Shown here: positions 7,330 to 48,368 of the stretch, piece after piece
How the letters are laid out: the number at the start of each line of letters is the position of its first letter
How positions within the stretch are numbered: the stretch's first letter is position 1
Assembly (NCBI GenBank): GCA_003990765.1
Contig: RBNJ01000025.1
Coordinates: forward strand, 1-50,901
Length of the DNA stretch: 50,901 nt
Direction of reading: 5' to 3'
DNA from: Jimgerdemannia flammicorona
Lineage: Eukaryota
The notes under the pieces: generated by a model
What the model was told of the DNA's origin: nothing
Seen by the model: only the letters and a program-made list of their open reading frames with translations
The model's database searches: none
Made by a program: the position numbers and the translations under genes

Positions 7330-8245
7330 GCGATTCCCGCTGATGGAGTAGATGTCCAATTCCGTTGCTTGAAGGTGAACATGGAGTGAATGAGAAAACA
7401 CGTGCGGGTGTTTAGCTAATACCCATCACACAGCTCTGCTTCAGAGACGCGGCCGTGCTTGTACTCCCTCGTCGCCAATTCTGATTCCGTTGAAGATGAA
7501 CAGAGATGGATGAGCAAACATTCGAAGATCGTGAGCTGGAACTCATCACGCAGCTGCAACAACAGCTCTAATATACTCTAGAGATCCAGCGTGGTCAGGG
7601 CCGTGTTCTGCTTCAGAGAATAGGCCAGAGTACGTACTGATTTTATGCCTGAAGATGAACAAGGGAAGGGAAATAAGCACATTAAGATCGCAAGCGGGAA
7701 TCAATGGTACGGCTTCAAGCAAAAGTCCAAACAGTTTCGACGTACTATTGAGATTTAGCGTGGCCAGCGTCGTGTTCAGCTTCAGAGACTCTTCCAATGT
7801 GCGTGGCCGATGGGGTTTACTTTAAAATGAACAAGGGATTAGTGAACACACCTCAGATTATGAACGTGGTTCTATCACAATGCTTCACACAGTTCCGACA
7901 TACTTTCAAGATTCAGCTCGGTCAAGGCCATGTTCTGCTTCAGAGACCCAGCTAGGACGACCGGCCCCAGTAGCCAATGACATTCCCTTAAAATTAACCG
8001 GAGACGAGCGAACATGTATGTATTACGAGCGTGATTTGATCACGCGGCCGCACACAATGCTTCAGAAAAGTATTGCCATTCAGAAGAGATTCTGTTTCGT
8101 CAAGGTTATCTTCGCTTCAGGGACTGGGTTAGAAATGTGTGCTTCATAGTGACATACCCGAAATTCAGCTCGGCCAAGGTCGTGTTCGGGTTCAGAAACC
8201 CGGCTTGGGTGGGTGCCCCTTCGAGACTAATGTCAACATCTTAAT
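7330..8245 (-). pseudogene. Orphan, degenerate array of about 6 RI-type LRR exons with cognate introns
   Basis: Repeated gtgttctgcttcagaga core and introns like those in 29400-31600. The exon at 7746 reads LEESLKLNTTLATLNLN; exon 7577-7648 has a TAG; exons 7904-7986 (83 nt) and 8158-8239 (82 nt) are off-frame. Confidence 0.85.
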
Positions 8246-14196: not shown

Positions 14197-15322
14197 GCAT
14201 ACGACAGTGGCGAAGCGATGTATTTTCTTCCAATAAAGAATTTTCGGATAGTAATAGACATTAGTCTGCGACGAAGCCGAGATTCTCCAAATATATGTGC
14301 CGTCAAGATTTCAATGGATGGCACTGGAAGGTAAGATCTTATGACTTGATTTTTACGTGAGTATCCTGATCTAATTGTGCTGTTTGGCAACACAGAAAGT
14401 CATTACAGGAGTGTAAATGGGGTAGGCGAGGAAGTAGTAACCAATTTGGTGTTGATATGATAGCGATATATTAATACGTATTACCTGTAGTAAGTTGTGA
14501 ACCATATTTACTCTATGAAGGTGCTTTAAAGTATGAAAAGATCACAAATGCCGTCCAAGAAAACCAAATTTCTATATACGTCATGGAGTAATTAAATACC
14601 AATCCGGGAATTGGGTTAAGAACCAAGTCACCATCTCAGATTCTACTTGTGCAACTCTGATGTTACCAATATTGGGTTGTGAGCCCACCTTTTTCGGTAA
14701 AATCTTGAATTCTTAAATTCCAACTAAATAATGGAGGGGTTTTAGGTCCGTCTGTCAAACCACAGGCCAAAAGACAGGCTGGGCGTTATTCCCTACGTTC
14801 GACAAGACCCAGGCGGAAGCAGCCCCCCACGCAGTAAGACCTACCCACGCACGAACTACAGGTACAGGGTCAGTGCAGGGGCCCTCTGTGTTTGGTATGC
14901 CCCAACGTACGACTTCGTGCTCAAACCGTAACAGTACTATATGTATGGGATAGAACTAATTTGTCTCCCAATCTGGACATGAGGCTGCGTCAACCGGACT
15001 TTGTAAATATTTTTTGGGGCCAGCACAACACCTAAAAGAGTTGTCTTTGTTCGAGACAAAACCAGTCACGGTCGCATATGACGGAAGCCCAGGATATTTA
15101 CGACATTTACAAGCAATAATGGCGCGCACACCGATTTCCGTACAGACAATTCAGACTTCGAAACTAAAACCCATAATCAGTAACTGCACAACGACGATTA
15201 TCTGCAGAATCTTTAAGTGCCGAAATACTAACTACAAACCGACATGTGGGTCACCTCTTGCGCCACAAAATTGTCAAAGATTCTCGCATTCTCCTCCACC
15301 CCCCCTCCTCCCCAAAAGAACT

Positions 15323-17732
15323 ATGGTCGAGATAGCCGACGTCCTCATCGCACAGATCAAGGAGCAGGGCGATAAGATTCATACTCTCAAGACACAAAAG
15401 GCCGATAAGCACATCATCAACGCCGAGGTTCTCGTCCACAACGACCTCAAGCAACAACTCGTGATGCTCAAGGCCAGTCAGCTGCCCACAGGGGACAACG
15501 CCGAGAAGAAGGAGAAAGAGGGGAATGGGTCATTTGCACTTAAAGTTCCAAAGGTACCCAACGGGAGGAGATGGGTGGGTTACGAGGGACGAAAACCGGG
15601 TTTTGAAATATAGAAACCGTAATGAAACTCTGATGTCGCTTTTATCCTCAACGCATTGTTCTGAAGACGCTGTGCGCTTTCTCCTGTGATTCTTTCAGGG
15701 GACAAAAGACTACAATGATATGGAAATGGCCATCTGCGAAAAGGTTTTCTCAACCATCACCTCCGTCTTCAAGCGTCACGGCGCCGTCACGATCGACACG
15801 CCTCTCTTTGAGCTCAAGGTAAGCACAGGCATGGGGTGGGTCCGTAGGTTTTGGCGCGTCATGAGAGCGTGTGCTTTGGTTCAGGATGTGTGGATGATAG
15901 CACAATTTGCTAATCTTTTCTCCTTTCTATTTTGATCTGCCTAATGTTGTCGTGGTATAGGGTAGTTACGATGAGGACAGAAAACTCATCTACAATCTTA
16001 AGGATCAGGGTGGCGAGGAGTGTTCCCTGCGCTACGATGTGTCGGTGAGTACGTTGATCTGATCTCACTTTAGTGATCCTCTCAATCTCAATCTCTCGCA
16101 ATACGTACCAACCAACTACGCCGACTTCGCTCCTGCTCCTCCTCGTTCTTCAGGTACCCTTCGTCCACTTCCTCGCCATGAATGGCAAGGAATACCAGAA
16201 CTTCAAGCGTTACCACATTACCAAAGTGCACCGCCGCGACCAGTCGGCGATGTCAAAGGACAAGATAACAGAGTCCTACCAATGCGTGAGCGATCCTTTT
16301 TTTTTTTTTGTTCTTGCATTAGGGCAGAAGTGACTTGGTTGATGTGCATACTGATTGATATTCGTCGGGCAGGATTTCGACATCGCCGGGACTTATGACC
16401 CCATGGAGCCTGACGCCGAGATCCTCAGGATCCTATGTGAGGCGTTAACGGCGCTGGACGTTGGAAAGTACACCGTCAAGGTATGTAGCCAATTGCGTTG
16501 AATTCCAATACAATTTTTATAAGTATTATTGTGTCCTCGCTCACACATATATCTATACCTGAAATTGCAGATAAACCACCGTAAGATCCTTGACGGCATC
16601 TTGGAGGTTTGCGGAGTTCCCGTCGACAAGATCAGGCCCATTTCCTCTGCTATTTGTAAACTCGACAAGGTACGTTACCGATTGGCCCCTCCATCATTTC
16701 TTCCTACCTTCCGAATAAGCGTTCCAATCCGTCTCCTCCAACCTTCTCCAATCACACAGCTTTCCTGGGAAGACGTCCGTAAGGAGATGACGGAGAAGGG
16801 CCTCTCAACCGAATCTGCCGATGCCATCGGCGAGTATGTTAAGCTCAAAGGCGGGCACGACCTGCTCAACCACCTCGTAGCGGATCGCCAACTCGTGGTT
16901 AACCCTAGTGCTAGAAAAGGACTCGACGATATGGCACTGCTATTCAGATACCTGGAGATACAGGGAGTGGTGGATAAGGTACATGCGCGGCCGTAGGAGA
17001 AATTTTATGCCGTTTGTGTGCGGATTTCTGACAAAATTTGTTTTGTAACGAATCATGTGTGGGGGGTTTTTTTTTTTTTTATGTCGTGTCAAAATAGATA
17101 TCGTTTGATCTGAGCTTAGCAAGAGAATTGGACTGCTACACAGGCATTATTTACGAGGCCGTGACGGAAAAATCTGCCCCGCCAAGTATGTCTCTCTACC
17201 ACCCTCTCTTCTCTTCTATCATCATCGTTTTACCAAACGCTGAGCATCGCTCACCCTCGGCCCCATTCCCTTCCCCCCTTCTCCAACCCACTTCCCTCGG
17301 TGCTCGCCGAAGATGAACGCCCTACCTCCAAGAAAGACACTGACGAACTAGACGAGTCGACGTTAGGGGCTGGGTCAATTGCAGCGGGTGGGCGGTATAA
17401 CGAGCTGGTGGGCATGTTGTCGGGAAAGAACAAGAACGGCGAGGCCAACTTGCGCATCCCCTGTGTTGGTGTCTCCATCAGCGTCGAGCGCGTTTTCATT
17501 ATCCTACTTGAAAAATACCGCACGGAGGAGATTAAGAGAAACGAGGAGAGGATAGCTGTCGCGACCGAGGTATGAGATAAATGAGGTTAATGTTGTTGTA
17601 ATGATGGGATTTGTGAGGAGCAGTTGCGTTATTTAGCTTAACTTACACTCTTGCATTATTCTCTCCGCCCAATAGGCAGAATACGTGTTTAAGGTGAAGC
17701 CGAATCCCCAGAACCAGATCGATGTTTGCGAC
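15323..17732 (+). pseudogene. HTS1: Histidyl-tRNA synthetase-derived sequence (copy 2), active-site degenerate; either a pseudogene or the 5' part of a chimeric gene
   Basis: Exons 15323-15553, 15699-15818, 15961-16044, 16154-16285, 16373-16480, 16571-16669, 16760-16978 and 17098-17185 are all open and in phase. The ancestral acceptor at 17299-17300 is mutated (AG to GG). Motif 2 reads RRDQSAMSKDKITESYQ and the HisA loop reads RELDCYTG. Confidence 0.85.
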
Positions 17733-25449: not shown

Positions 25450-27250
25450 GTGTTCTGAATTTCCCATAGGATATCAGATAAGCAGAGGTCCCAGTTGGTA
25501 GGATTGACTTGGGCAAGTCCCTTCTTGATGGTCTGGTGCATTTGCTCAGTTATACCATTGGTCTGAGGGTGGTATGATGTGGTCCTTTTCAGATAGATTT
25601 TGTGAATTTATACATAAGTTATGACTAACTTATTAATAAATTCTATATCACAGTTAGAGATAAGTTTCTCTGAGAGTTTATAACTAAGGATAAGGTTATT
25701 GAGGTGGTTTATAATAGTTGAGATATCTGTAATTTCTTTTGGAAAAGCTTTAGGCCATTTGGTCAAATATTCTACAAATACTAGAATATATTTATTTCTC
25801 TTTAGTATAATTGGCAGAGATCTAATAATGTCTACTTTCTATCTTTAAAAGATGTGAATAAATAGTGTAATTGATTATAATAGTACTGGAAAATTCTTCT
25901 TTCTTTAATACTTCTAGCAGATGTCACATCTCTTGAGTATATATATATATATCTAACTTGTATTCTGAGATAGAGTCAGTATTGATATATTTCTTATAGC
26001 TTTTCTTCTATACTAATCTGTTCTTAATAGGCTTTCTGGTATTCTTGTCAGGTGAGGTCTTTTTGCTCTTTAGTAATTATAAAAATTTTCTTTAAAATGT
26101 GGTTTTAGAGTATATCCTTTTTCTAGTTTATTAAGTTCTGTGAAAAAGTATATTAATATTATTGTAAACTTTCTCTACTTTATAAATAATAGTGATTTTA
26201 TAATTTTATTAGATAAAAATTTAGTAGATAAGAATTTGAATAAGTTTTTTATAGTAGAATAGTTATTTGAGGGCAATATAGTTAGTTATCAGAGTAAATC
26301 TTTTTCTAATAAGATAATACTTAAATAGAGTAACTACTTATATAACTGTAAGATATTTCAATTTAGTATTATCATAGTTAATTTGCTACTTATTAGTAGC
26401 TCAGCTTCTATAAGCTATTATATAGTATTGATAATTAAGTTCTTCTTAGACTAGAACTGCTCTAAGACTATCTTTGGAAGTATTTATATATAAGATAAAT
26501 AGTTTCTGCAAGTTGTATTATATAATAACTAGTACTGTAGTTATGCAATACTTAAGTTTCTTGAAGACTAGCTCTTGAGGTTTCTTTTATTTATATAATA
26601 CTTCTTTTTTAAATAGATTCAAATTAATATTATTATTTTGGTAAATTTTTTAATAAAGCTTCTATAGTAAGATACTAGTATTAGAAAGAATTGTACTTCT
26701 TTTGAAGTCTTGAGTACTAATTAGTTATTAATCTTCTTAGTTTTTCTTGAGTTTATATGAGTTCCTTCTTTAGAAATTACAAATTTAAGAAATTTAAGTT
26801 TCTGTTTTCCAAAGTAGTATTTCTTGGTATTAAGTTTTAGATAGTTCTTTTGAGTAAGTTAAAAGAACTCTTTTAGATATTATAAATGTTTTTTTAAATT
26901 TACTAAATAAATATTAAAGTCATCTATATAAATAATTAAACAGTAGTAAATTAATAATATATAGACTAAGTTCATCATTCTTTGAAAATTAGAGATATAT
27001 TACATAGTTCAAAAGGTATTTAAAGATATTTGAATAGTTTTTCTAAGATAAGAAAGACTATCTTTTGAATATTCTTAAAGTTTATAGAGATCTCATAGAA
27101 TTCTGCAAAGAGAGCTATACTGCTAAAGAATCTAATATCTTATAATTAGTCTAGAAGGTCATTGATTCAGAGTAAGAGATAAATATCCTTTTCTGTTACT
27201 AAATTGAGCTTTCTGTAGTCTATACAGAGTTTCTATCCTCCTTTCTTTAG
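25450..27250 (-). mobile_element. Hypermutated Ty3/gypsy LTR-retrotransposon pol relic (RT ... integrase)
   Basis: On the minus strand: LCIDYRKLNLVTEKD (~27185-27230), IIYIDDFNI (~26910-26937) and integrase TTSYHPQTNGITEQMHQTIK...NWD (~25490-25587). RT-before-IN order indicates Ty3/gypsy. Many stop codons. Confidence 0.88.
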
Positions 27251-28130
27251 TCTCAATCCAATTTATCTCACTTTATTTTACCCTAATACACTCTCTTCTT
27301 CTACTTCTACTCTCTCAAAAACAACTATACTATTAACTACTGTGATCTGTCTATGACTCTTCTTACAAATTTTTTTTATCAGATACTAATAGCAATCTCT
27401 CTGAGAGCTTCACCCCCTCTATCAGCCAGATAGAATATCTATTATTAGCTCCTTTTACCTAGTATACTTTATAGTTAGTAGTAACTCTCAATATTATTAA
27501 AAATATTATTAAAAATATTATTATAAATATTATTATAAAGTAACTTATAGTTTAGCCAATTAAATAGCTATATATAATATAGTAAACCTGTATAAATATC
27601 TCTAATATCTAAAGTGAATAAACTTTAAATAAATAGTTCAAAGTAAAGAAATAAGAGAACTAGTAAGCCTGTAGATATATATACTTTAAACTTACTCACT
27701 TCTGTATCTCTGAGGACTCTAAGAAGTCAAGAAGATCAAGTACTCAAGATAAAGAAATCTGTTGCATTTTCTAAGTTACATATATATCTACTATATATAT
27801 TATAATATATAACTAATTTATATTTTCTATATTATAGAAAATTTAATAGTTGGTTTCAAATATTTCTAAAGTTATAGCTTTTTAAGTATTATAAATAACA
27901 TAATTTATAATCTTTAACTTTATACTAATTTAAAATTAGACTTAAGATCTAATATATAATCAAATGTCTATTTTTTTATTTATATTATATTATAATATAA
28001 AGAAGTATAAATAATATAACTTTAGATAAAAATAGATCAAAATATAAAAATAATACAAGAATACAAATATATATACATTATATAAATGTAAAATAAAAAA
28101 ATTTATCATAAGATATATTGCTTATTTAGA
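27250..28130. other. Extremely AT-rich hypermutated tract, probable TE relic of unidentifiable type
   Basis: Almost no CpG, TA-rich, no ORF; contiguous with the gypsy relic and ends within a few bases of the kinase stop codon. Confidence 0.6.
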
Positions 28131-28135
28131 GTTAG

Positions 28136-31100
28136 TCAGTTTTCCAACTCCACCTTTGCATGATACTTGCTGACAGATCCACTCAAAAACATGAACTCGG
28201 ATACAGAGTCAATCTCAGCTTGGATATTCTCAAGATGTACCACGGCTTCAGGTATGTCATCCAGCCATTCTTCACCAGCAATATCTGTCTCTATACTTTC
28301 AAGAGCTTTCAACACCTCATCAACCGTCGGTCGCATTTCAGGGTCAAGGCTCCAACACCTTTTGTAGATGTCCGAATATTCAGATGGTGTGCCAGGGACA
28401 GGTTCCTCGCGCAGTCCAGGTGAGGTTGTATCGGGCAGACACAGTGCATTTCCGCGAGGGCAAAACCTTGCCGTTAATTGCCATAGAAGCGTTCCAAGAC
28501 AATATATGTCGGATTTTTTCGTGAATGGTGAATTTTTCTTGAACGCTTCGGGTGGAAGATATTCCTTCCGACCATAAATTTGGCCGTCGTGTTTGCTGAA
28601 ATATTGTACAGTGTTGCTTATACCAACGTCAATGATCATGGGATTAACGTTGGGTTTACCAAGGAATACAATATTTCCTGGGTGCAAGTCATTGTGAATC
28701 AGGTCAGCACTATGTATCACTTGCAACCGGCGGGTGATCTCTACAGCAATCTGCCATACATTTAACCAGGAATTGGCTGAAGACTTGGTGAGAAGTTGTG
28801 TAAGATCACCACCAGCAGCATATTCCATCACTATAATATAGCAACCAGTAGTATCATCCATTGATAATCCAATAACTGCTGGCGTTGATACTCTGCCAGA
28901 TTTGTTGAAGACTCGAAGATAGACATTGACTAGTACCTGCATAAGAAATAGAGTAGGTATCTCACATGAGTTAGTTATAGAAATGAATTCAATAGCAGAT
29001 ACCAGAGAGTAATTAATAATCACCTCATTACAGAGTTGATCCATTCCATGAACATTTGCTTTCAATATCTTTAGTGCAACAACTTTTTCTCTTTTCCGAA
29101 TATCATTCACTTTGGCTTTGTATACGATGCCGAATCCACCTTCGCCTAGAATTTCAACTTGGGTAAATTTACTATAAGGTATCCAAACCATGCAAGCTGC
29201 GAGTTCTGCAATTTGAAGCATTGTTAGGCACTTCACGAGCTTTTCATCATCACTGGGGAAGGCGGATTTCAACTTTGACATAACATCGATGTCAGAATTT
29301 TTGATTACATCCATGATCCAACTAAGTTGTAATAATCTTGAGGCTGTTTCGTAAAGCCAGGTCAGTAACCGGAAGTTATGAGTATCTTTGCCAAACGGTA
29401 AATAACAGTTTGCACAACTCTCACATACCATTGAGACTGGATTTGGACTCAGCGAAGAACGCATTCCGCTTCAGAGAATCAGCAATAATATCTAATGTTT
29501 CGTCGCTGATGACATTGTCTGTTGAACAGTAGATGGGCGAGTAAACATTGTGGTGAGCTGGGACCCATCAAGCGGCGGTAAACAACAGTTCACACAGTTC
29601 AAACATACTTTGGAGATACAGTGTGGTCAAGGTCGTGTTCTGCTTCAGAGACTCGGCCAGTATGTGTGCTCCCTCGTCGCCGATTTTGTTGTCTAAAGAT
29701 GGACAGAGGATGGGTGAATAAAGACGCAAGGGTAGTGAGCTGGTATCCATTACGCAGCTGTAAACAGTAGTTCACGAAGTTCAAACACACTTTGGAGATT
29801 CAGCGTGGTCATAGTCGTGTTCTGCTTCAGAGATTCGGCTAATGTGCGTGCTCCTTCTTGGCCGATTCCATTGCCTGAGAAAGGATGAACAAACACGCAT
29901 GGCTGGTGAGTTGGTACCTATCACGCAGCTACAAATTAACAGAGTTGAAACTACCTCGTAGATTCAGCGTAGTCACGGTCGTGTTCTGCTTCAAAGACTC
30001 GGCCAGTGCGCGTGCTCCCTCGTCGCCGATTCCATTATCTGAAGATAAACAGATGATTGATGAGCAAAGACACGCAGGCGGTAAGCTAGCACACATCACA
30101 CAGCTAAAACATACCTTGGAGATTCAGCATAGTCACGGTCATGTTCTGCTTCAGAGACTCGGCCAGTGCACGAGCTCCCTCATCGCCAATACTGTTGTCT
30201 GAAAATGACCAGAGGATAGATGAGCAAATACACACGAGTGGTTCCAAGCAGCAGTTCACACAATTAAAACATACCTTGGAGATTCAGCGTGGTCACGGTC
30301 GTGTTCTGCTTCAGAACCTCGGCCAGTGCGCATGCTCCCTCGCCGATTCGGTTGTCTGAAGATGAACAGAGGATGGATGAGAAAACACGCAAGAATGGTG
30401 AGTTGGAACCCATAGCACCCATCACGCAGCTGCAAATAGCAGTTCACACTGTTCAAACATGCCTTGGAGATTCAGTATGGTCACAGTCATGTTCTGCTTC
30501 AAAGACTCGGCCAATGCACGTGCCCCTTCGTCGCCAATTCCGTTCCCTTAAGTAAAACAAAGGATGAATGGGAAAAGACGTAAGGGTATTGAGCTGATAC
30601 CTGCCCATCACGCAGCCGCAAACAGCAGCTGATATACCTTGGAGACTCAGCATGGTCACGGTCGTGTTCTGTTTAAGAGACTCTGCTAGTGCTTGTGCTC
30701 CCTTGTGGCCGATTCGGTTGTCTGAAGATGAAACAGAAAATTGATGAGCAAATACGCACGGGAGGTGAACCGGTACAAATCACGCAGCTGCAAATAGCAG
30801 TTTACATAGTTCAAATATACCATCGAGATTCAGTGTGTTCACGGTCGTGTTCTGCTTCAGAGACGCGGCAAGTGCACGTGATCCCTCGTCGCCGATTCCA
30901 TTGCCTGAAGGAGAACAAACGATGAATTAGCAAACACGCATAGATGGTGAACTGGTACCCGTCACGCAGCTCAAACATACATTGGAGATTCAGCGTAGTC
31001 ACAGTCGTGTTCTGCTTCAGAAACTCTGCCAGTGCGCGTGCTCCCTCGTGGCCGATTCGGTTGTCTGAAGATAACACAAAATGGATGAGCAAACAGGCAT

Positions 31101-34100
31101 GGGCAGTGAGCTGGTAACCGTCATGCAGCTGCAAATAGCAGTTCACACAGTTCAAACATACAATCGAGATACAGAGCGGTCACGGTCGTGTTCTGCTTCA
31201 GAGACATGGCCAGTGCGTGTGATCCCTTGTCACCGATTCCGTTGCCTGAAAATGAACAGAATATGGATTAGCAAACACTCACAGGTGATGAGCCGCTACT
31301 CATTACACAACTCAAACACACCTTTGAAATTCAGCGAAGTCACAGTCGTGTTCTGCTTCAGAAACTCGGCCAGTGCGCGTGCTCCTTCGTCGCCGATTCC
31401 GTTGTCTGAAGATGAAGAGAGGATGGATGAGCAAACATCCACAGGTGGTGAGCTGGTGGCTATCATGCAGCTGCAAACAGAAGCTCACAGTTCGAACATA
31501 CATTGGATATTCAGCTTGGTCACTGTCGTGTTCTGCTTCAGAGACTCGGTCAGTGCTCGTGCTCCCTCCTCAGCTGATGAACAGAGTATGGATGAGATAA
31601 TACACAGTGATACTCATTCCACAACTGCAGACAAAAATTCCCATAATTTCAACATACCATTGAGATTCCGTTTAGTCAAAGTCTCGTTCCGCTTTAATGC
31701 CTTGTCTATGGCAATTATTATCCCCTTGCCCTTAAACCCATCTACTGAAAAATGCACAAATGCGCAAAGATAAGCTGGATCGAAGCACCCACATTCAAAT
31801 AGTCACACACTGACCTCTGACATACAGTAGAGACTCAGCTGGGAAAGGGTCGTGTTCTGCTTCAGAGACTCGGCCAGAGCATGGCCACCCTTAACGCCGA
31901 TTCCAGTTTCTAAATAAATACGCACACGTCAGCTGGATTGAATCACCCACATTCAAACAGTCATCATACACTGATATCCGATATACTGTTGAGATACAGG
32001 TTGGTAAGGGTCGTGTTCTGCTTCAGAGACTCGGCCAGAGCACGAGCACCCTCATCGCTGATGTGGTTATCTAAATGAATGTGCACAGGTCAGCTGGATG
32101 GATGGAATCACCCACATTCAAACAAGCACACACTGACTTCTGACATACTGTTGAGATCCAGCTGGGTAAGGGTCGTGTTATACTTCAAAGACTCGGCTAG
32201 AGAACAGGCACCTTCAGCGCTGATTCCATTTTCTAAATGAATACGCACAAGTCAGTTGGATGGAATCTCACACATTCAAACAGTCACACACTGATTTTCG
32301 ACATAATTACTTTTGAGATTCAGCTGGGTAAGGGTCGTATTATGCTTCAGAGACTCGGCCAGAGCACAGGCACCCCCAGCGCCGATGCCATTCCCTGAAA
32401 AATGCACAAATGTGCACAGGTCAGCTGGATGGAATCACTCACATTCAAACAGTCACACATTGATTTCTGACATACCGTAGAGATCCAGCTGGGTAAGCAT
32501 CGTGTTCTGTTTCAGAGACTCAGACAGAGCACAGGCACCCTCGGCGCCGATTCCGTTACCTAAATGAATACGCACAGGTTAGCTGGATGGAATCACCCAC
32601 ATTCAAACAGCCACACACTGATTTAGGACATACAGTGAAGATGCAGCTTGGTGAGCGTCGTGTTCTGCTTCAGAGACTCCGCCAGAGCACGGGCACCCTG
32701 ATTGCCGATGCTATTCCCTGAAAAATACACAAACGCGCATAGGTCAGCTGGATCGATTCACCCACATTCAAACAGTCACGCGCTGATTTCTGACATACCG
32801 TAGAGGTTCAGCTTGGTAAGGGTCGTGTTCTGCTTCAGAGACTCGGCCAGAGCACGGGCACCCTCAATGCCGATTTCGCTATCTAAATGAATACGCACAG
32901 GTCAGCTGGATCGAATCACCCACATGCACACTGGTTTCTAACATACTTTCGAGGTCCAGCCGGGTAAGGGTCGTGTTCTGCTTCAGAGTCTCGGCCAGAG
33001 CACGGGCACCGTCATCGTCAATGTCGTTATCTAAATGAATATGCACAGGTCAGCTGGATCGAATCGCCCACATTCAAAACGATTCCCGACATACCTCCGA
33101 GATCCAGCTGGATAAGGTTCGTGTTCTGCTTTAGAGACTCGGCTATAGCAAGGACACCCTTGGTGCTGAAATCATTCACTAAAAAGTGCACAAATACGCA
33201 CAGGTCAGCCGGGTCGAATCACTCACATTCAAACAGTCACACACTGATCCCAACATACAGGAGAGATTCAGCTGGGTAAGGGTCGTGTTCTGTTTCAAAG
33301 ACTCTGCCAGAGCATAGAAACCCTCAGTGCCGATTCTATTCCCTGAAAAATGCACAAATATGCACAAGTCAGCTGGATCGAATCACCTAATCACACTGAT
33401 TTCCGACATACCGTAGAGATCCAGCTGGGTAAGGGTCGTGTTCTCCTTCAGAGACTCGGCCATAGCACACGCACCCTCATTGCCGATTTCGTTATCTAAT
33501 TAAATTAATACGCGTTAATACATACAGGTCAGCTGAACGAATAAAACAATCATACCTGATTTCGGACACACATTCGAAATTCAGCTGGGCAAGAGACGTG
33601 TTCTGCTTCAGAGACTCGGCCAGAGCACAAGCACCCTCGGCGCCGATAGGGTTATCTAAATGAATGCACAAATACGCACTGATCAGCTGGATCGAATCAC
33701 CCACATTCCAAAAGTCACACACTGATTTCTGACATACTGGAGAGACTCAGATGGGTAAGGGTCGTATTCTGCTTCAGAGACTCGGCCAGAGCACGAGCAC
33801 CCTCTACGCCAATGCTATTCCCTGAAAAATGTATAAATACGCACAGGTCAGCTGGATCGAATCACCCACATTCAAACAGCCTCGTAATGACTTCTGGCAT
33901 ACTATTGAGATTCAAATGGGCAATGGTCGTGTCCTGCTTCAGATATTCCGCCAGAGCACGGGCACCCTCGTCGTCGATTTTGTTATCTAAATGAATACGC
34001 ACAGGTCAGTTGGATCGAATCGTCCACATTCAACCAGTAACACTCATTTCTGACATACTTTCGAGATTCAATAGGGTAAGCGTCGTGTTCTGCTTCAGAG

Positions 34101-34251
34101 GCTCGGCCAGCGCGAGTACACACTCAGTGTCAATACGCCCATCTGAAGATGAACAAGAATTGGATGAACAAACACGCTTTGGAACTCGTCAGACAGCTGC
34201 AAACAACAGTTCACTCAGTTCTAACATACTAGAGATCTTCAGCGTTGACAT
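28136..34251 (-). CDS. Intracellular LRR-protein kinase (~1189 aa): 29 RI/NLRC3-type LRR exons + TKL-like kinase domain
   Basis: Exons in transcription order: 34230-34251 (MSTLKIS, tentative start), 34059-34142, 33903-33986, 33738-33821, 33572-33655, 33412-33495, 33259-33342, 33095-33178, 32947-33030, 32799-32882, 32634-32717, 32476-32559, 32311-32394, 32149-32232, 31987-32070, 31826-31909, 31658-31741, 31502-31573, 31322-31405, 31162-31245, 30981-31064, 30821-30904, 30638-30721, 30463-30546, 30275-30355, 30115-30198, 29955-30038, 29791-29874, 29609-29692, 29429-29518, 29024-29343, 28136-28936. Total 3570 nt with no stop when translated by hand. Repeat consensus xNxIGDEGARALAESLKQNTTLTxLxLx. 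Kinase motifs GEGGFG, VALK, HNDLHPGN, DVG, YLPPE, SDIYCLG, CWSLDPEMRP. Confidence 0.9.
29429..34229 (-). repeat. Tandem exon-intron repeat array, period ~150-190 bp, 29 units
   Basis: The core gtcgtgttctgcttcagagactcggccag recurs in nearly every unit, and the introns are mutually similar in two families. Confidence 0.97.
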
Positions 34252-35329
34252 ATTTGTATCAGTGTCGAGCGTGAAGTGTCAAGTGTTGAGTGTCAAATTT
34301 CTAACCCTAATCACTAGCGGAAAGAAATTAGGTGGCTTGTGTGATGTTTCACCTGAAAGCATTAGTCAGAGAAGAAGAAAAAGAGTGTTTGTTTGCCGAT
34401 GATAATAAAGATCAGATTTAAAGCCTTGAACTATTGGAATCCGCGTATATAGGTCACTTTTCAAGCTCAACGGGTTGCTCTACGACGTGTCGCGATAAAT
34501 CCGCTCTTTTCAGGTTATATTTTTTATTAGCAACAAATAACATGGGGGGGGGGGGTGGGGGGCGCGCCGCGTAAGCTCTATGAAAAGTTCTCGAGGGTAC
34601 GTAGAGAACCGTTCAGCTTGCGTAGAGCGAACAGCGATTTCTAGACCCCTTGCGCCATCGTAAATGGGACGCGTCACCAAACACATGCCTCCTTTTGTCC
34701 GATGATAAAAGCCTTGAAAGTATCAATGAGATGATTCCTCCTACCGGTCTCACTAGAGTTATTTTGGTCGATTCCCTGAATATGCTTGGTAATTTGGGTC
34801 ATGAACAGGTAGAGAGCTTGCAGTGAGTGGCGGCCCTGCTGATGATATCGGCCGGTGTTGTTCTGAAAATAGCTGCAGTGTTTGTTGTCACTATTGGTAT
34901 CCAATGTATGGTGCCAGGACTTTGTGATGACGGCCTTGAACTTGGCTTCGGATTCTGGGACCATATACATAAATATTTCTGGATATTGTTCACGTCCTAG
35001 TTGTGGAAGACAGATTTGCCAATCGAGATATCAATGAGTTTGGTGTTTGTGAGCGTGGAATGGTGTGCGTGTGAATCGTAGGAGGCCTTATATATAAACC
35101 TCCGAGTATTGGCAGCTTTGCACTAACTTTATTTTATGACCACCGATTCCATGCAGTTCCCGTTCGGTGAACAACGTTAGCAAAGTGTCCTTGCGCTGGT
35201 GTGATTTTAGGGATATGTTTTAAAGTGTTCGAGTGTAGAAATGAGGCGTACGTAACTAATTATAAATGTCAATGTTCAATGTAAGACCAAATGACTAAAA
35301 GCGGGGGCCCGAATGTTAGCTGAGAACCA

Positions 35330-35892: not shown

Positions 35893-36229
35893 TTCCAGGG
35901 ATTCTATGGTCAAGAGCGCACCAACTGTTGCAGACCTGAGGCAAGAAACTCGGTCTACACCCAATTCTCGCGTTGATATTTATTGTTCCCTATAATACGA
36001 TGACGTACAACGCAACAATTTGAAACCTTTGATGTAGCGCTTTGCGTGAGGTGAGTACTGAATACGAGGCAGGTTATAGCGACGGGACTATGTGCCCACC
36101 AAGTTGGAGGCAGCCCACCCTCCACAAAACTAGCTTTGGAAGTGTAATTTCCGACTAGCATGACATTACCTAATCGTTCGTATCGTTTGGTTCATTTTCT
36201 GGCGGACTTCTTGAAATTCTCTTGGTTAA

Positions 36230-38140
36230 TCCTATAAGGTTTATTCTCTCTGGTCTGTGGGGTTATTTATACAAGTTGGGCTAAGCTATGGTATGATGGT
36301 TCTTACTGAGTAAGACTAACTAATGAAGATAAGAACAAAGTTATTACCAGTGGCAATTTGATAGTGGTGAGTTGACAAGAGCAAAGCTAATACTAATAAG
36401 GATAAGATTGTTGCACTTGTCAAGTAACAGTATTAAAGATAAAAGCTAATTAAATAAATATAAGATAAATTATTTATAGAATTAGACTAATTAAGCTATA
36501 ATACTTGATGAATGATACTATTAAAAACTAAGCTATAATAAGTAGGTTTTGTCACTAGTAGTAGTTAACAGTAGTAAGACCAATAGCTAACTAAATATAA
36601 GTTAGAAATATTTGTTAATATCAATAGAGTGATATAATTTTTAGTTAATAAGATCTGTGACTTTTTTTATTTATTTTTCAAAAAGTAAAAAGTAGGTCAG
36701 AATAGAAGTTAGACTAATTATCATTTAAAGATAGATAGAAAACTGATAAATTCTTAAAGTTTTTTCTTTTTTAGTTAATAATTAAAAAGAACTATATTTA
36801 GAAATAATTTTATATTTTATAATATTATCTAAAAATAATTATTCTTTCTCTCAGTAAGAGATATCTAAAATTTCTTATATAATAAACAGCTAACTAGATA
36901 GTAAGTGATATAATATAAACTCTAATAAAATAAGTTCAGTATATTTAAATTTATCTTGGATATAGTTATTACATACTAATAAAGTAGGCTATATATCTTA
37001 GCTTTTATTTAATTAATATTTTCTTTAGTAAGATATATATGAAAAACATCTTAAAAATATATAATTATTTAAGAAATATAGCAAAAGATTTAATAAACTT
37101 GAAGTTTTTTTTTAATTTATCTAGTAGTAAGTTTTTTTTTACTAAATAAGATCTTAATAGTTTTTATTTTATAATTTATCTTAAAGTCTATAATATTATG
37201 TATATTATTTATTTATTTATTTAGATAAAAATTATCTACTTCATTATATTTTTATTTATAAATTAATAGATATATTAATAATTTAAAATATATACTTATA
37301 AATAAGATATATAATTTAATTGATAATATATATAAATATTAAGTTAATAATATATATTATTGCTAAATAATATAACTATTATAGTATATACTATTTAATA
37401 ACTTTATCTAATTTATTTATTATATGTATTTTATAATATAGATATATAATTAATAATAAAAGAAATCAGAAAAACTCTATTCTATTTTTATATACTAGTT
37501 ATATTATTTAGTAATCTTATAATATTTTATATAATAAACTCTATTTATTATATAAACTAGTACTCTATTTTCTCAAAGATTTATATTTATATAATTATTT
37601 AAAAGATCTATTTTTATCTAAATATTTATAAATATCTGAACTTCTATATTAATAATCTGAAATACTTTATTCATTATTACTAAGTTATAATATAATATCT
37701 TAAGAATATTTCTAAAAATTTAGTCTTTTGATATATATATATAATATATTTATTGAAAATATAACTCAATTTTATTTAAAAAAAATAAATTTATTTTTAT
37801 TTTTATTTTATTTATAAAAATTATAAATTTTATAAAATTTTAATTATAAGTATTTTTTTTTTTTTATAAAGTTATTATTATTTTATAAGTTAAACTTCAA
37901 AAAGTCAAATTTGTCTATATATATATTAATAGATATATATATAAAATAAAAGAATAATTATTTAGTAAGAATTAAATAATTTATCTACTAATAATTATTT
38001 TTATAATTATATTATACTACTATGCTAACATATCTAGAGAGGAAACTTATTCCAAATGAAATCTAGTTACATATATAGAAGAATAAAGTAGAAAAAATGA
38101 TATAAAAACTATTATTAACTATGAAAGTGTTATATAGAAG
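36230..38140. other. Extremely AT-rich hypermutated island, probable TE relic
   Basis: GC content falls progressively from ~36230 to almost pure A/T; CpG is absent; residual C and G occur mostly as CT/AG; no recognisable protein motif. Confidence 0.65.
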
Positions 38141-41510: not shown

Positions 41511-43267
41511 CTAAAACAATTCAGGAAGAGGCTTAGTGTGTTCGATGACGACCGCCTCCAACTCATGTGGGTTCAAACCAAGGGCTACGAGGGTGGATGG
41601 GGCGATCTGCCTGGTGGACACAGGGACAGAGACCTTTTTGGCGCGGAAGCGAGGGTTGTGCACAATAATGGGAACGTGCAAATCGTCCTCGTTAAATCCA
41701 CCATGCTCGGCAACCTTACTTTTCGAAGCCGTGTAGATGACGCCGGGGACGGTTTGGATGATCACATCTGGTACACGTGAGTCCGTCGCCGGATTGCCGA
41801 AACCGGCAGTTTTAACGCCGGGACCTTCCCAGAGCTTGAGCAGACCAATCGTTTTGGCGGCAGTCAACAGGCTCGCAGCTGCGGAGGCACTATCGCTGCC
41901 GTTCTTGAGCCAGAGAAGGCCGACATCGTCGCCGGTGAAGTGGGCGACGGGCACGCTGCCCACGTGGCTGGAAGCGTCCGGGTCGACCTTGTTGAGTAGA
42001 GTCTTATCGATGGGGGACTGGCCGTGCTTGGCGGAAATAATGAGGAGGGTCTTCCTATAGATGCCGCTCTTTTTCAGGTTGGCGATGAGGGTGGCGAGCT
42101 GGGCGTCGATACCGAGAAGGGCTTGTGCCACGACGGGAGACGGTGTGCCGTCAGCCTTGAGGTAGCCATCGGTCTTCTGGACGACGGAGAGCGATTGGAA
42201 GTTACCACCGAAGAGGTTGGGAGTGGCCCAACCCTTCTCGTGCTTGCCGGCGGAGTCCAAGCCCTTGATCCAGTTGTTAATGGCATTCCAGTGGAGCTCT
42301 GGATAAAATGCAACAAATGTGAGGGTATGATTCCACGATGCGGCCGATGTCCGTGTATGACACATAAAATCGCATGTAAAGATCGACACGGAATACTTAC
42401 GGTCATAAGCCTGAACGGCCGCAAGCCCTGCGGCAATGGAGTTAATCTCGGGAGTATACAAATCCTCGACACCCTTGCCAGAGGGACCGTGGACGATGTC
42501 ATAGGCAAAGTGCTTATCCGTCCAGGCTGTGTGCAGCTTGTGCTTTCTGGCGACCTCGAATATAGTGTTTACACGAATGTAGTTGTGTGGGTACTCTGGC
42601 AGGCACTTTTTGCCAACCAACCTGAGTGGCAATTTCGCTACATCGATGCCGCCACCACCATCGAGAAGTGTATCATTAAAATCGATACTTTCGTCATACA
42701 GAGCATTCACGCCACGAGCTCCTTGGCAATTTGACCCTGGTGGGAACAGTTCGCGATCCCAAGAGTTGTCGTACCAAATACCAGTGGTCTTCGGGGAGCC
42801 ACCAGTTATCTGGGCTATCAGACCGGGGAAAGAATCAGAGGGCTTGGAGGTCTGGATGGGAAGGACACATTACGATATTTTGTTATTCAATATTCATTCG
42901 ACCCGTTGGTCAATCACATCGGCTTATTTGTGACGAGGAAAAAAAGTAAATTATTATAAGAGATATCCTACCTGCGCATTCTGATATTCAATACCATTCT
43001 TCAAGAGAGCAGCAAAGGCGGACTTGGGATGATTCTTAACAAACACGTCCAAGTCTTTTTGATGCATACTATAATTATGTAGAAAGACGATTGCAAAATT
43101 AATAAGGAGATCGGATGAATACTGATTAAAATTGAACCATAGTGTGGTAAAACGTACCCATCGATCGACAACAAGATGACATGCTCAATGCCACGTCCTC
43201 TCTTGGGATGCGCGTCCGTGGTGGAAAGAAGGAGAAGAGCAGCAAAGACAATGGTCTTGAACATCAT
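41511..43267 (-). CDS. Secreted alkaline phosphatase superfamily protein (type I phosphodiesterase/nucleotide pyrophosphatase-like); exons 43158-43267, 42972-43068, 42401-42851, 41511-42298
   Basis: Signal peptide MFKTIVFAALLLLSTTDA; HVILLSIDG|MH, PSDSFPG, IISAKHGQSP and AEHGG...DDLHVPII motifs. An in-frame 102-nt intron (42299-42400) lies inside the listed ORF. Confidence 0.9.
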
Positions 43268-46912: not shown

Positions 46913-48368
46913 TCAGCCTCGACGATCTTTTATCCGATACTTGCATTGTCCATATAAGGTCACAGCAGGATAAACCTTATTGGGAAGATTAGTCCAGGCT
47001 GTCTCGTAATTTAATCCGTTAATCGAAAGGGCACAGGTATTGTTATTTAGATTTAAATGCAAGGTTATGACATGACCGACTGCAATACGTTTGCCATAGG
47101 ATTGGAGAGTCCATGCATATGGCCGGGTTGCCATGCTATCACCAAAATGTGCGAATTACTCTCCAATGAGCCCAATGTGACAGGCACCGTCGGGGCGAAG
47201 GGATTCAACAACGATGTCCCATTCGCAAAGATCCTTCGTTCCAGGAGAGGAAAGCCGTACTGTCTGTGACGAAATCCCCGAGGGGAGCTCCATAGTTCGG
47301 CCATCTTCCGAAATGACCACTTGAGAACTGGCTTTCGACCGATCCCACTGAAGAGTAACATTGTGATGCACCTTTCCGCGACATGCGGATGGATGTCCCG
47401 TAGGGCACACCGTGTTCTTGCAGGCGTGATGGCAAAATGCCATATAAGGCACAGAGGTCCCTGCAAACTCGTCAACTGCCTCTGTGAGGCTCTTAAGTCG
47501 ATGTGGGCAGACGAGTGTGAGGTCAAGGTGGCTCATCATTTTGAGCAGCAAGTCGCGCGATGGACCATCTCCCAGTCGAATCGTGCCCTTGCTCCCCGCA
47601 ACAACATCATTAATGTCATGCAGAACGGTATGGCGCTCTGAAGCCGATGGCGAGCTCTCGTTGCGTCCCCAGACCCAGTCGACGACGCACAGTAACAGCT
47701 CATGCTCGGATGTGGCAAGGGTTGCTACCTCGGTGAGGAGCAGCTCGAGGGCCTCTTCGGAGAGGTCGATCAGCTCGCCGATGGCAAGCTTGTGAACGCG
47801 GAAGTGTTGAGGAGCACGTCGTAGAGGTCTTTGTTGGCTTCGCTCCAGGGAATGGAGGCGACGGCTTCGTTAAGAAGCGATGAGGCGACACCAAAATCAT
47901 CGAGGTTATGTGCGCGTTCCAGCACCATCTTCGTGAGCTTGGGGAGGAGGAGAAAGCTTGCTGCGCGGTATATTCCAACCGCGATGGAAAAATTGACAGT
48001 GTTGTCGATGGTTTCGGTGTGAATGAAGCCGAGGACGATGTTGAGCACCGCAGAGGTGATGTCGTTTAGGACAACGCGATGAGAAGAACTCTCTCGCATG
48101 TTTCCGTACAGCATCACCTTGAAGACTGGGCACCTTTTAGGAGACCATATAAATTAGATGTGTAAAAAAAAGGCACGAAAACCGATGGACAAAACTAAAC
48201 TGTGTAAAGGAATCGAAATCGGACAAACCTTGAAGCCAGTACGGCACGGCACGCGCCTAGCTCGACACCGTCCGCGCAGACGATGGTGACATCGTGGTAG
48301 GTTTGGTCCTTCCAGATGGAAGCGATGTCGTCCCTAAGGCTAAAACCGCTATCAGATTGATCGACCAT
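46913..48368 (-). pseudogene. BTB/POZ - BACK-like - SPRY/B30.2-like protein gene with a frameshift and an internal stop
   Basis: Exon 1 ...YHDVTIVCADGVELGACRAVLASR|CPVFKVMLYGNMRES... (BTB); LSEEALELLL...TSEHELLLCVVDW (BACK-like); GHVITLHLNLNNNTCALSING...AWTNLPNKVYPAVTL (SPRY). Frameshift near 47800 and TAA at 47156-47158. Confidence 0.82.

Follow-up and report, generated by a model that had tools for sequence, protein, structure and literature searches.

What is encoded by a long tandem series of short leucine-rich repeat (LRR) frames that lies upstream of a protein kinase frame in the fungus Jimgerdemannia flammicorona? The series is found on contig RBNJ01000025.1 (GenBank assembly GCA_003990765.1), of which positions 1 to 50,901 were analyzed and are called here the window; the gene at issue spans 34251-28136 on the minus strand, as do all of its parts given below. 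A sequence-only reading had proposed that 29 consecutive phase-1 exons, each coding for one LRR, are spliced without a stop to the kinase, and that the product is a cytosolic sensor whose specificity can be diversified through its exons. Our analysis gives us high confidence that 34251-28136 is a real spliced LRR-kinase gene, and the protein it encodes is a soluble LRR-kinase of 1,190 amino acids (aa), an architecture seldom seen in fungi.

The exon chain was found by scanning for AG...GT intervals that have a length divisible by three and are open in phase 1, and this yielded one consistent chain of 32 exons and 31 introns with a stop-free spliced coding sequence of 3,573 nucleotides (nt). 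The introns are 64-107 nt long; all 31 acceptors are AG and 30 of the 31 donors are GT, the remaining one (exon 24) being GC. Read on the minus strand, the spacers between the LRR frames contain stops, start with GTATGT and finish with YAG. Exons 2-30, between 34142 and 29429, are 29 symmetric LRR exons with phase 1 at both ends. Twenty-six of them are 84 nt long if exon 17 uses the acceptor at 31741, or 25 if it uses the one at 31744 and measures 87 nt, and the others are 72 nt (exon 18), 81 nt (exon 25) and 90 nt (exon 30) in length. The proposed run of one-LRR exons leading stop-free into the kinase is borne out by this gene model and by the repeat profile described below.

The LRR region consists of two blocks, of about 16 and about 12 ribonuclease inhibitor (RI)/NLRC-type repeats, separated by two irregular repeats. 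Exon 1 (34230-34251, 22 nt) supplies the ATG and the residues MSTLKIS, which correspond to the tail of an LRR beta-strand, and ends at a GTATGT donor in phase 1; the array sets in 7 residues behind the ATG. Ten codons 5' of this ATG there is an in-frame stop, with no AG in between. Sub-array A (31826-34142), delimited by the repeat profile, the gene model and Tandem Repeats Finder, contains 15 exons of 84 nt: exons 2-6 at 34142-34059, 33986-33903, 33821-33738, 33655-33572 and 33495-33412, exons 7-11 at 33342-33259, 33178-33095, 33030-32947, 32882-32799 and 32717-32634, and exons 12-16 at 32559-32476, 32394-32311, 32232-32149, 32070-31987 and 31909-31826. Its core motif is NTTLTxLxL and its introns, 64-82 nt long, belong to one family. 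The hinge between the sub-arrays is exon 17 (31658-31744), a divergent LRR with the sequence GFKGKGIIIAIDKALKRNETLTKRNLN that is 87 nt long with a CAG acceptor or 84 nt long with a TAG acceptor (31741), and it is followed by the shortened LRR of exon 18 (31502-31573, 72 nt), whose flanking introns of 84 and 96 nt are both removed in contigs. Sub-array B (29609-31405), delimited by the repeat profile, the gene model and contig joints, contains 11 exons: exons 19-24 at 31405-31322, 31245-31162, 31064-30981, 30904-30821, 30721-30638 and 30546-30463, and exons 25-29 at 30355-30275 (81 nt), 30198-30115, 30038-29955, 29874-29791 and 29692-29609. Here the core motif is NTTVTTLNLQ, and the introns (76-107 nt) form a second family in which short and long ones partly alternate. 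Exon 30 (29429-29518, 90 nt), NVISDETLDIIADSLKRNAFFAESKSSLN, is a degenerate terminal LRR or cap, placed by the gene model, the repeat profile and a contig join to exon 31. Tandem Repeats Finder reported a period of 165/323 over 31749-34110 and periods of 160 and 341 over 29948-31572.

The remaining two exons encode the linker and the kinase. Exon 31 (29024-29343, 320 nt) carries a linker of about 60 aa that is conserved in relatives from Endogone, followed by the kinase N-lobe with the motifs GEGGFG, VALK and NE. Exon 32 (28136-28936, 801 nt including the stop) provides the catalytic core (HNDLHPGN, DVG, PPE), the C-lobe and a conserved C-terminal tail (WLDxIPEAVxxL). Intron 31 between them (28937-29023, 87 nt, phase 0) is in frame and stop-free, and the open reading frame (ORF) 28136-29470 stays open through it; its removal restores the alignment with the Endogone proteins P0001 and P0089.

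Alignment of the 29 exons gave the repeat consensus NxIGxEGAxALAESLKQNTTLTxLNLx. When a hidden Markov model (HMM) of the 29 exon translations was run against a six-frame translation of the whole window, it matched exactly those 29 places at E-values of 1.5e-19 to 7.3e-10. The unit has the 28-29 aa, the LxxLxLxxN/C strand and the ensuing conserved amphipathic helix of RI/NLRC-type LRR_6 repeats, and LRR_6 was the sole Pfam family matched by single LRR exons (12 of 29 at E<=0.01, modest values because the queries are 27 aa long). Solved structures matched by the repeat profile include 5irl/5irm, which we take to be rabbit NOD2. Like the LRR_6 domains of animal NLRC3/NOD2-type proteins, the repeats are 28 aa long with a conserved helix and an LxxLxLxxN strand; unlike in animal NLRC proteins, NACHT and CARD are missing here and the LRRs are N-terminal to a kinase. 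Animal NLRC LRR exons are presumably also 84 nt long, which a literature search did not confirm. Per-position entropy over the 29 exons was 1.8-3.1 bits at the x positions of TxLxLxxNx and 0-1.4 bits in the helix, in agreement with the earlier description of a nearly invariant helix next to widely varying x positions. The x positions of RI-type LRRs form the concave ligand-binding face, and unit positions 24, 26, 28, 1 and 3 are predicted from the alignment to be the concave face of the solenoid.

Hydropathy windows and Pfam scans agree with the claim that the protein has no signal peptide, transmembrane (TM) segment or NACHT/NB-ARC domain. The N-terminus, MSTLKISNGRIDTE, is not hydrophobic, and no signal peptide was seen on inspection, no dedicated predictor having been run. 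No convincing TM segment was found: the best 19-aa hydropathy window scored 1.61 and falls in the linker, VKCLTMLQIAELAACMVWI, which contains K and E, and the homologous segment of the relatives carries D, E and K. No Pfam match to NACHT or NB-ARC was obtained in exons 31-32, the 29 LRR exons or the six minus-strand ORFs upstream of the gene, nor to Roc-COR or any GTPase in the exons or in the same six ORFs, which reach to an AT-rich block and gave no Pfam domain at all. With no signal peptide and no TM segment between LRRs and kinase, the protein is not a receptor kinase of the plant type; with the last LRR exon spliced straight to the linker and kinase exon and no Roc-COR between, it is not a ROCO/LRRK protein; and with no NACHT or NB-ARC, it is not an NLR (NOD-like receptor) of the STAND class. 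What it shares with plant LRR receptor kinases and with LRRK/ROCO kinases is an LRR sensor coupled to a kinase of the tyrosine kinase-like (TKL) type.

Evidence for splicing came from two public sequencing runs of two studies, X1 and X2, with 0.23 and 0.20 of the sampled words shared, whose RNA type is a guess. Contigs from these runs were mapped on 28000-34400 at >=95% identity, and 28000-28213 had no contig cover in either run. Among the joints listed, contig joints match at least five predicted introns to the base. The joint 31573|31658, which removes the 84-nt intron after exon 17 (31657-31574), was found in X1 and X2, as were 30721|30821 (99 nt) and 30355|30463 (107 nt), the latter having plus-strand ends CT..GC and thus being the predicted GC-AG intron; 31405|31502 (96 nt) was found in X1 only, among the joints listed. 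Record 12 of X2 runs from 29518-29429 directly to 29343-29102, with an 85-nt intron removed and the frame kept, which favors a single gene and goes against the refuting outcome named in the sequence-only reading, namely that no transcript links the LRR exons to the kinase; the exon 30-31 junction is carried by this single X2 contig. At the other end, record 8 of X1 matches the genome over 34073-34372 and then continues into Illumina adapter, which marks 34252-34372 as a probable 5' untranslated region.

Some observations count against the gene model in its details. The contig joints and pieces listed cover at least five of the 31 introns, and the same runs contain unspliced contigs over introns 1, 2, 15 and 16. 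Exon 1 is the least certain part of the model, as the sole listed contig over it (X1 record 8) retains intron 1. The runs, moreover, were guessed to be RNA; were they DNA, what looks joined would be paralogous copies lacking introns and not transcripts. The likeliest explanation is that the runs contain pre-mRNA mixed with mRNA.

The same runs bear on copy number. As many as 733 and 394 contigs fall on the 6.4-kb stretch, roughly half of which reach no more than 95-99% identity, and many joints between non-adjacent repeats bear foreign letters or run backwards. Such non-adjacent joints were not taken for isoforms and were read as paralogue pieces or assembly-graph effects. The divergent contigs and the joints with foreign letters suggest, short of proof, that the organism has further similar arrays, and by this sequence evidence the gene family may be multi-copy. 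Two single joints of X1 were recorded separately. One, 32716|33258 (plus-strand CT..AC), connects the exon 7 donor to the exon 11 acceptor and would skip exons 8-10 in frame; it has 20 nt on its shorter side, and a paralogue origin is equally possible. The other, 34002|34073, skips 70 nt with GT..AG on the plus strand, is offset by 15 nt from the predicted intron 2 (33987-34058) and may come from a paralogue, from an antisense transcript or from the way the contig aligned.

The contiguous frame 28136-29470, read through intron 31, covers positions 2-259 of the 263 of the Pkinase profile (E 6e-27), and exon 32 matches Pfam PK_Tyr_Ser-Thr (1.7e-22) and Pkinase (3.6e-22). All residues normally needed for catalysis are present in the motifs GEGGFG, VALK, NE (alpha-C), HNDLHPGN, DVG and PPE, and catalytic activity is suggested by these. 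The intact catalytic motifs claimed earlier are thus kept as far as the catalytic residues go, in a setting that is non-canonical: the kinase is non-RD, with His for the catalytic-loop Lys and DVG for DFG. The closest solved kinases (NEK2, TAK1, MLK1/4, CSK, RIPK1 and CTR1, E ~1e-14) come from mixed groups, and these best solved matches would place the kinase in a TKL-like neighborhood with no clear assignment. Non-RD kinases are associated with pattern-recognition signaling in plants and animals, and a link between non-RD kinases and pattern-recognition receptors was reportedly drawn by Dardick & Ronald in 2006.

Relatives of the kinase were found mainly in Endogonales and Glomeromycotina. 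The exon 32 product (266 aa) is 54-57% identical over its whole length to proteins of Endogone sp. FLAS-F59071, and the next relatives are kinases of Gigaspora and Rhizophagus at about 30% identity. Within the family, the protein is 54-60% identical to members from Endogone sp. and to unnamed ones, and 38% identical to P0115 from Jimgerdemannia. An exhaustive search of representative proteins returned 125 proteins at E<=1e-30, among them the named relatives RUS13961.1 from Endogone (P0089) and RUS29268.1 from Jimgerdemannia flammicorona, a Geosiphon protein and Rhizophagus proteins. The likeness reaches beyond the catalytic domain into the pre-kinase linker (xFPxDxxxLxxxL...IPYxxF) and the C-terminal tail (WLDxxPEAxxYL), and the protein has every family feature in the alignment: the linker xIPYxxF before the G-loop, H-x-D-L-H-P-G-N, YGRxEYLPPE and WLDxxPEA. 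The Arg of HRD is absent in all eight aligned members, and the ORF call P0002 reads through an intron at the position of intron 31, after the alpha-C Glu. Next to the cassette of linker and kinase the relatives have other domains, namely caspase (PF00656) in P0001 from Endogone sp., ricin lectin (PF00652) in P0007, Sel1 in Rhizophagus relatives, MLKL_N in Geosiphon P0219, TLDc in P0226, and the AIG1 GTPase in Rhizophagus P0212. On alignment and domain scans, the kinase thus belongs to an Endogonales/Glomeromycotina family that pairs one linker and kinase cassette with interchangeable modules, and these relatives place the source of the window among the Mucoromycota, closest to Endogonales. What our protein shares with these HxDLHPGN relatives is a kinase of 38-60% identity, the linker, the C-terminal tail, the intron position after the alpha-C Glu and the non-RD character; what sets it apart is the LRR array, as the relatives have caspase, ricin, MLKL_N, AIG1, TLDc, Sel1 or nothing in its place.

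Relatives of the array were sought separately. With the 67-aa contiguous frame P0082 (exon 7 with its in-frame intron flanks) as query, only five database proteins, all short, were found among 16 candidates. Four of them, P0083 and P0085-87, are ORF calls that read through the exon and intron units of very similar arrays, whose units differ at the LRR x positions and share nearly identical 'intron' peptides. P0084, the remaining one, stems from a contig of 935 nt; behind its ankyrin repeats stand four adjoining LRRs with no spacers, and it has the appearance of a spliced transcript. The LRRs of P0084, used as a query, matched RNI-like proteins of Mortierella alpina (1,162 aa), Podila humilis and Jimgerdemannia (LRR_6 with MYND) as well as many animal proteins named NLRC3 and NOD2. 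They also matched two LRR_6 and kinase proteins of other eukaryotes, P0342 and P0242, which were rejected as relatives because their kinases are only 24% identical, and 33% identical over 92 aa, and they are taken to be independent, convergent fusions. When metagenomes were scanned with the kinase alignment, 36 loci came up, most of them short or distant, and LRR exons were present in one only, the 1.5-kb contig L007 (L007:1-1508). It contains a kinase of the family (HKDLHSGN, YGRPGYLPPE) with an intron-like frame break and, about 250 nt 3' of it, a gene start with three LRR exons of about 84 nt and GTATGT introns. In this relative, kinase and exon-per-LRR genes are neighbors, or LRR-kinase genes stand in tandem, and the exon-per-LRR design is therefore not unique to the 34251-28136 locus.

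The history of the array can be read in part from its units. The 29 units fall into block A (exons 2-16) and block B (exons 19-29), with the divergent exon 17 and the short exon 18 between them and the degenerate exon 30 behind; the mean identity of the exon and intron units is 0.65 between the blocks and 0.70-0.80 within them. Units of sub-array B pair at distance two (19 with 21, 20 with 22), in step with alternating short and long introns, and this pairing implies duplication of two-unit blocks. In sub-array A, units have their best partners at scattered places, and those far apart are no less alike than neighbors. The unit comparison indicates that the array was built by tandem duplication of units and of two-unit blocks, possibly with gene conversion, and that it is not visibly dynamic now. 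Since every LRR exon has phase 1 at both ends, the gain, loss or skipping of any of them keeps the frame.

Selection on the array was gauged by nucleotide diversity among the repeats with Mann-Whitney tests, taking the codons of unit positions 24, 26, 28, 1 and 3 as x codons and the co-duplicated introns and non-x third positions as yardsticks; this is a comparison among paralogous repeats of one protein and not among orthologs, in which the columns share a tree that conversion could distort. In sub-array A (14 units), diversity was 0.51 at positions 1-2 of the x codons, 0.18 in the intron core, 0.23 at non-x third positions and 0.16 at non-x positions 1-2, and the x codons exceeded both the intron core (p 4.9e-5) and the third positions (p 6e-4). 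The corresponding values in sub-array B (9 units) were 0.375, 0.29, 0.26 and 0.10, and here the non-x codon positions 1-2 were less diverse than the introns (p 2.7e-6). The NG86 method pointed the same way, with a ratio of nonsynonymous to synonymous change (dN/dS) of 0.23-0.53 outside the x codons, at dS 0.3-0.6, and a higher one at the x codons, given below. By these values the nearly invariant helix is kept by purifying selection and is not merely young, and the excess at the x codons of sub-array A indicates that its predicted binding face diverged faster than neutral sites.

How the gene compares with described systems was examined in the literature. The closest parallel is offered by the ROCO (LRR-Roc-COR) genes of brown algae, for which exon shuffling, diversifying selection and alternative splicing are described and a part as cytosolic immune receptors has been suggested (Zambounis et al. 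2012, PMC3341825; Teng et al. 2024, PMC11378527). They too have one frame-preserving exon per LRR in long tandem arrays, with exon duplication and shuffling, variable positions on the binding face and inactivated LRR exons nearby (PMC3341825, PMC11378527), and our gene, with one repeat per symmetric exon of equal length in tandem (29 phase-1 exons, 25-26 of them of 84 nt), is built on the same plan. The differences are that the algal exons have 72 nt and encode a 24-aa plant-type LRR, as against 84 nt and a 28-aa RI/NLRC-type LRR here, that the algal output domain is a Roc-COR GTPase and not a directly attached kinase, that the kingdoms differ, and that the algal arrays show very recent shuffling (same sources), whereas no unit pair exceeds 84% identity here. 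Among fungi, LRR receptors were described as essentially absent by Soanes & Talbot (2010; PMC2939053), whose survey listed a few LRR and kinase proteins without a TM helix: four are from Batrachochytrium, and five are encoded by ascomycete genes that have no introns, resemble bacterial LRR-kinases and probably came from bacteria. The present gene resembles these in being fungal, in joining LRRs to a kinase and in lacking a TM helix, and differs in its 31 introns, its 29 RI-type repeats and its Mucoromycota-specific kinase. Fungal NLRs are likewise cytosolic and carry tandem repeats in which the scaffold is conserved and the binding positions vary, and among the domains that they combine are kinases as well as caspase-like and MLKL/HeLo-like modules (PMC10197012); unlike them, our protein has no NOD domain and its repeats are LRRs. 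LRRs are not the predominant sensor type of fungal NLRs, which use WD40, ANK and TPR instead (PMC10197012), and in Sordariales the N-NACHT type is combined with HEAT repeats, whereas its partner in animals is the LRR (PMC12258605); PMC12574304 makes no mention of LRRs. Literature searches turned up no account of an LRR-kinase with one exon per repeat in Mucoromycota. The sequence-only reading, which did not know the architecture as described in fungi, needs to be narrowed in view of the TM-less fungal LRR and kinase proteins already listed (PMC2939053) and of the RI-type LRR proteins annotated in Mortierella, Podila and Jimgerdemannia.

The surroundings of the gene add a few observations. AT-rich blocks flank it at 26000-28000 (GC content 0.21-0.23) and 36000-38000 (0.10-0.28), leaving an island of about 8 kb with normal GC content between them; neither block is a simple satellite, as only short, low-scoring tandem repeats were found there, and they may stem from RIP-like decay or from old AT-rich repeats. 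A second, degenerate array on the minus strand at 7444-8240 gave a few weak matches to the HMM of the 29 exons, with pieces such as GSLKQNMALTELNLESMSEL, ESLKLNTTLATLNLNS and YSLKQNTALTTLDL, E-values reaching 6e-10 and stops present. No clean 84-nt AG..GT exons and no nearby kinase were found for it, and it is probably the relic of a paralogous array. Elsewhere in the window, a WHEP-TRS domain was detected at 14960-15613 on the plus strand (E 5e-8), and on the minus strand a type I phosphodiesterase/nucleotide pyrophosphatase domain at 41511-42869 (E 8e-15, in a 452-aa open frame) and a BTB/POZ domain at 47770-48153 (E 8e-8); the other 29 long ORFs scanned in the window had no Pfam match.

What, then, might the protein do? 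We lean towards a cytosolic sensor-kinase as the reading that fits the locus as a whole. In such a protein, the concave beta-face of the LRR solenoids would bind a ligand, be it a protein or a molecule of microbial or partner origin; this would alter the activity or clustering of the C-terminal kinase, and the kinase would then signal by phosphorylation. A short conserved helical linker connects the LRR blocks to the non-RD, TKL-like kinase with its family-specific C-terminal tail. That the protein is a recognition receptor for variable ligands we put forward more tentatively, at somewhat below an even chance. That the concave face binds a ligand, and that the protein takes part in recognizing non-self or partners, we infer; by analogy an immune or non-self role is plausible. 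Consistent with recognition are the partner modules of the kinase family, which belong to cell-death and immune toolkits (caspase-like, MLKL_N, AIG1, TLDc, lectin), together with the non-RD kinase, the excess at the concave face of block A and the apparently multi-copy family.

A number of points weigh against recognition by a variable receptor. A variable concave face on a conserved scaffold is the norm for any LRR protein. The claimed excess of change at concave-face positions was significant in sub-array A, at 2-3 times the introns and third positions, and not in sub-array B (p 0.087 against the intron core, 0.089 against third positions). NG86 gave a dN/dS of only 0.89-1.40 at the x codons; as codon paths of several steps inflate dS there, this value does not settle the matter, and per-column diversity was relied on instead. 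No pair of units is above 84% identity and there is no sign of ongoing rapid turnover; at this maximum, shuffling was not recent. Of the claimed diversification by exon gain, loss, shuffling or skipping, what stands is that every LRR exon is frame-preserving; this identity ceiling tells against its being recent, and the one hint of present use is a weak skipping joint (32716|33258). No LRR domain was found in any of the 51 closest kinase relatives scanned, a result that is weak either way because many of these are fragments or prokaryote-style ORF calls blind to 84-nt exons. Finally, the deviations of the kinase (non-RD, His for Lys, DVG) leave its activity not assured, and at the family level P0001 has HSNLHPGN, with Asn at the position of the catalytic Asp, and may be a pseudokinase within the family.

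The alternative that survives best is an ordinary intracellular signaling kinase whose LRR block is a fixed docking or autoinhibitory domain and recognizes no variable ligand, on the model of the Ras-binding LRR of fungal adenylate cyclase, of RanGAP-type LRRs or of LRRK-like scaffolds. Cytoplasmic LRRs of this kind have a fungal precedent in adenylate cyclase (PMC2939053), and RI-type LRR proteins with unrelated partners such as MYND fingers are annotated in Mortierella, Podila and Jimgerdemannia. The identity ceiling, the lack of identity decay with distance and the non-significant excess in sub-array B would also suit a fixed domain. Such a domain would not by itself account for the concave codons of sub-array A diverging 2-3 times faster than introns and third positions, and 29 repeats far exceed the needs of known docking LRRs; the many 95-99%-alike contigs (733 and 394 on 6.4 kb) suggest a multi-copy family, and the other modules of the kinase family are of cell-death or immune type. 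On balance we regard an ordinary kinase as possible and somewhat doubtful.

Much less probable is a pair of adjacent genes, with an LRR protein that ends before 29343 and a kinase that starts at an internal Met. That both gene types can adjoin is illustrated by L007, where LRR exons start about 250 nt after the end of the kinase gene, and close kinase relatives of 313-485 aa without LRRs exist. Against two genes, record 12 of X2 joins 29518-29429 to 29343-29102 with the frame kept, no stop separates the LRR and kinase parts, and the linker encoded directly behind the junction has its homologue in front of the kinase of Endogone P0001 and P0089, where it also stands behind an N-terminal domain; we would be surprised if the locus proved to be divided. 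Equally hard to credit is a decaying or non-functional gene, that is, a tandem exon-like array beside a kinase relic with incidental transcription, to which the degenerate array without clean exons at 7444-8240 in the same window, the location between AT-rich blocks and the existence of unspliced contigs might point, but which is contradicted by 1,190 codons with 0 stops, by 62 usable splice sites out of 62, by a scaffold dN/dS of 0.23-0.53 at dS 0.3-0.6 and by a kinase with all its motifs and catalytic residues kept.

The sensor-kinase reading can be extended to a whole system. In this broader form, which we consider unlikely on present evidence, Endogonales-type fungi would have an LRR-based cytosolic recognition system of multi-copy NLRC-type arrays on non-RD kinases, with diversity arising from duplication and from alternative use of frame-neutral exons, and bacteria, endobacteria, fungi or plant partners would be recognized. 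Annotation would have missed it since every repeat is tucked into an exon of 84 nt: gene calling based on ORFs, and much of the automated kind, picks up the kinase exon only, and domain censuses of early-diverging fungi may as a consequence undercount such genes.

What is new here is an exon-per-repeat LRR-kinase in a lineage and in a kinase family where none had previously been noted. The lineage forms mycorrhiza and hosts endobacteria, and fungal-immunity surveys and reviews hold that LRR-type pattern receptors are lacking in fungi (PMC2939053, PMC10197012). The gene, spliced and selectively maintained, with 29 NLRC-type LRRs and a non-RD kinase, is a concrete candidate for LRR-based recognition in this kingdom. 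Should its function turn out to be ordinary signaling, it would still illustrate neatly how symmetric exon and intron units have been put together into a repeat protein. If the recognition system is true, the view of fungi as being without LRR receptors would be overturned, and exon-per-LRR receptor diversification would have been invented independently a third time, after animals and brown algae.

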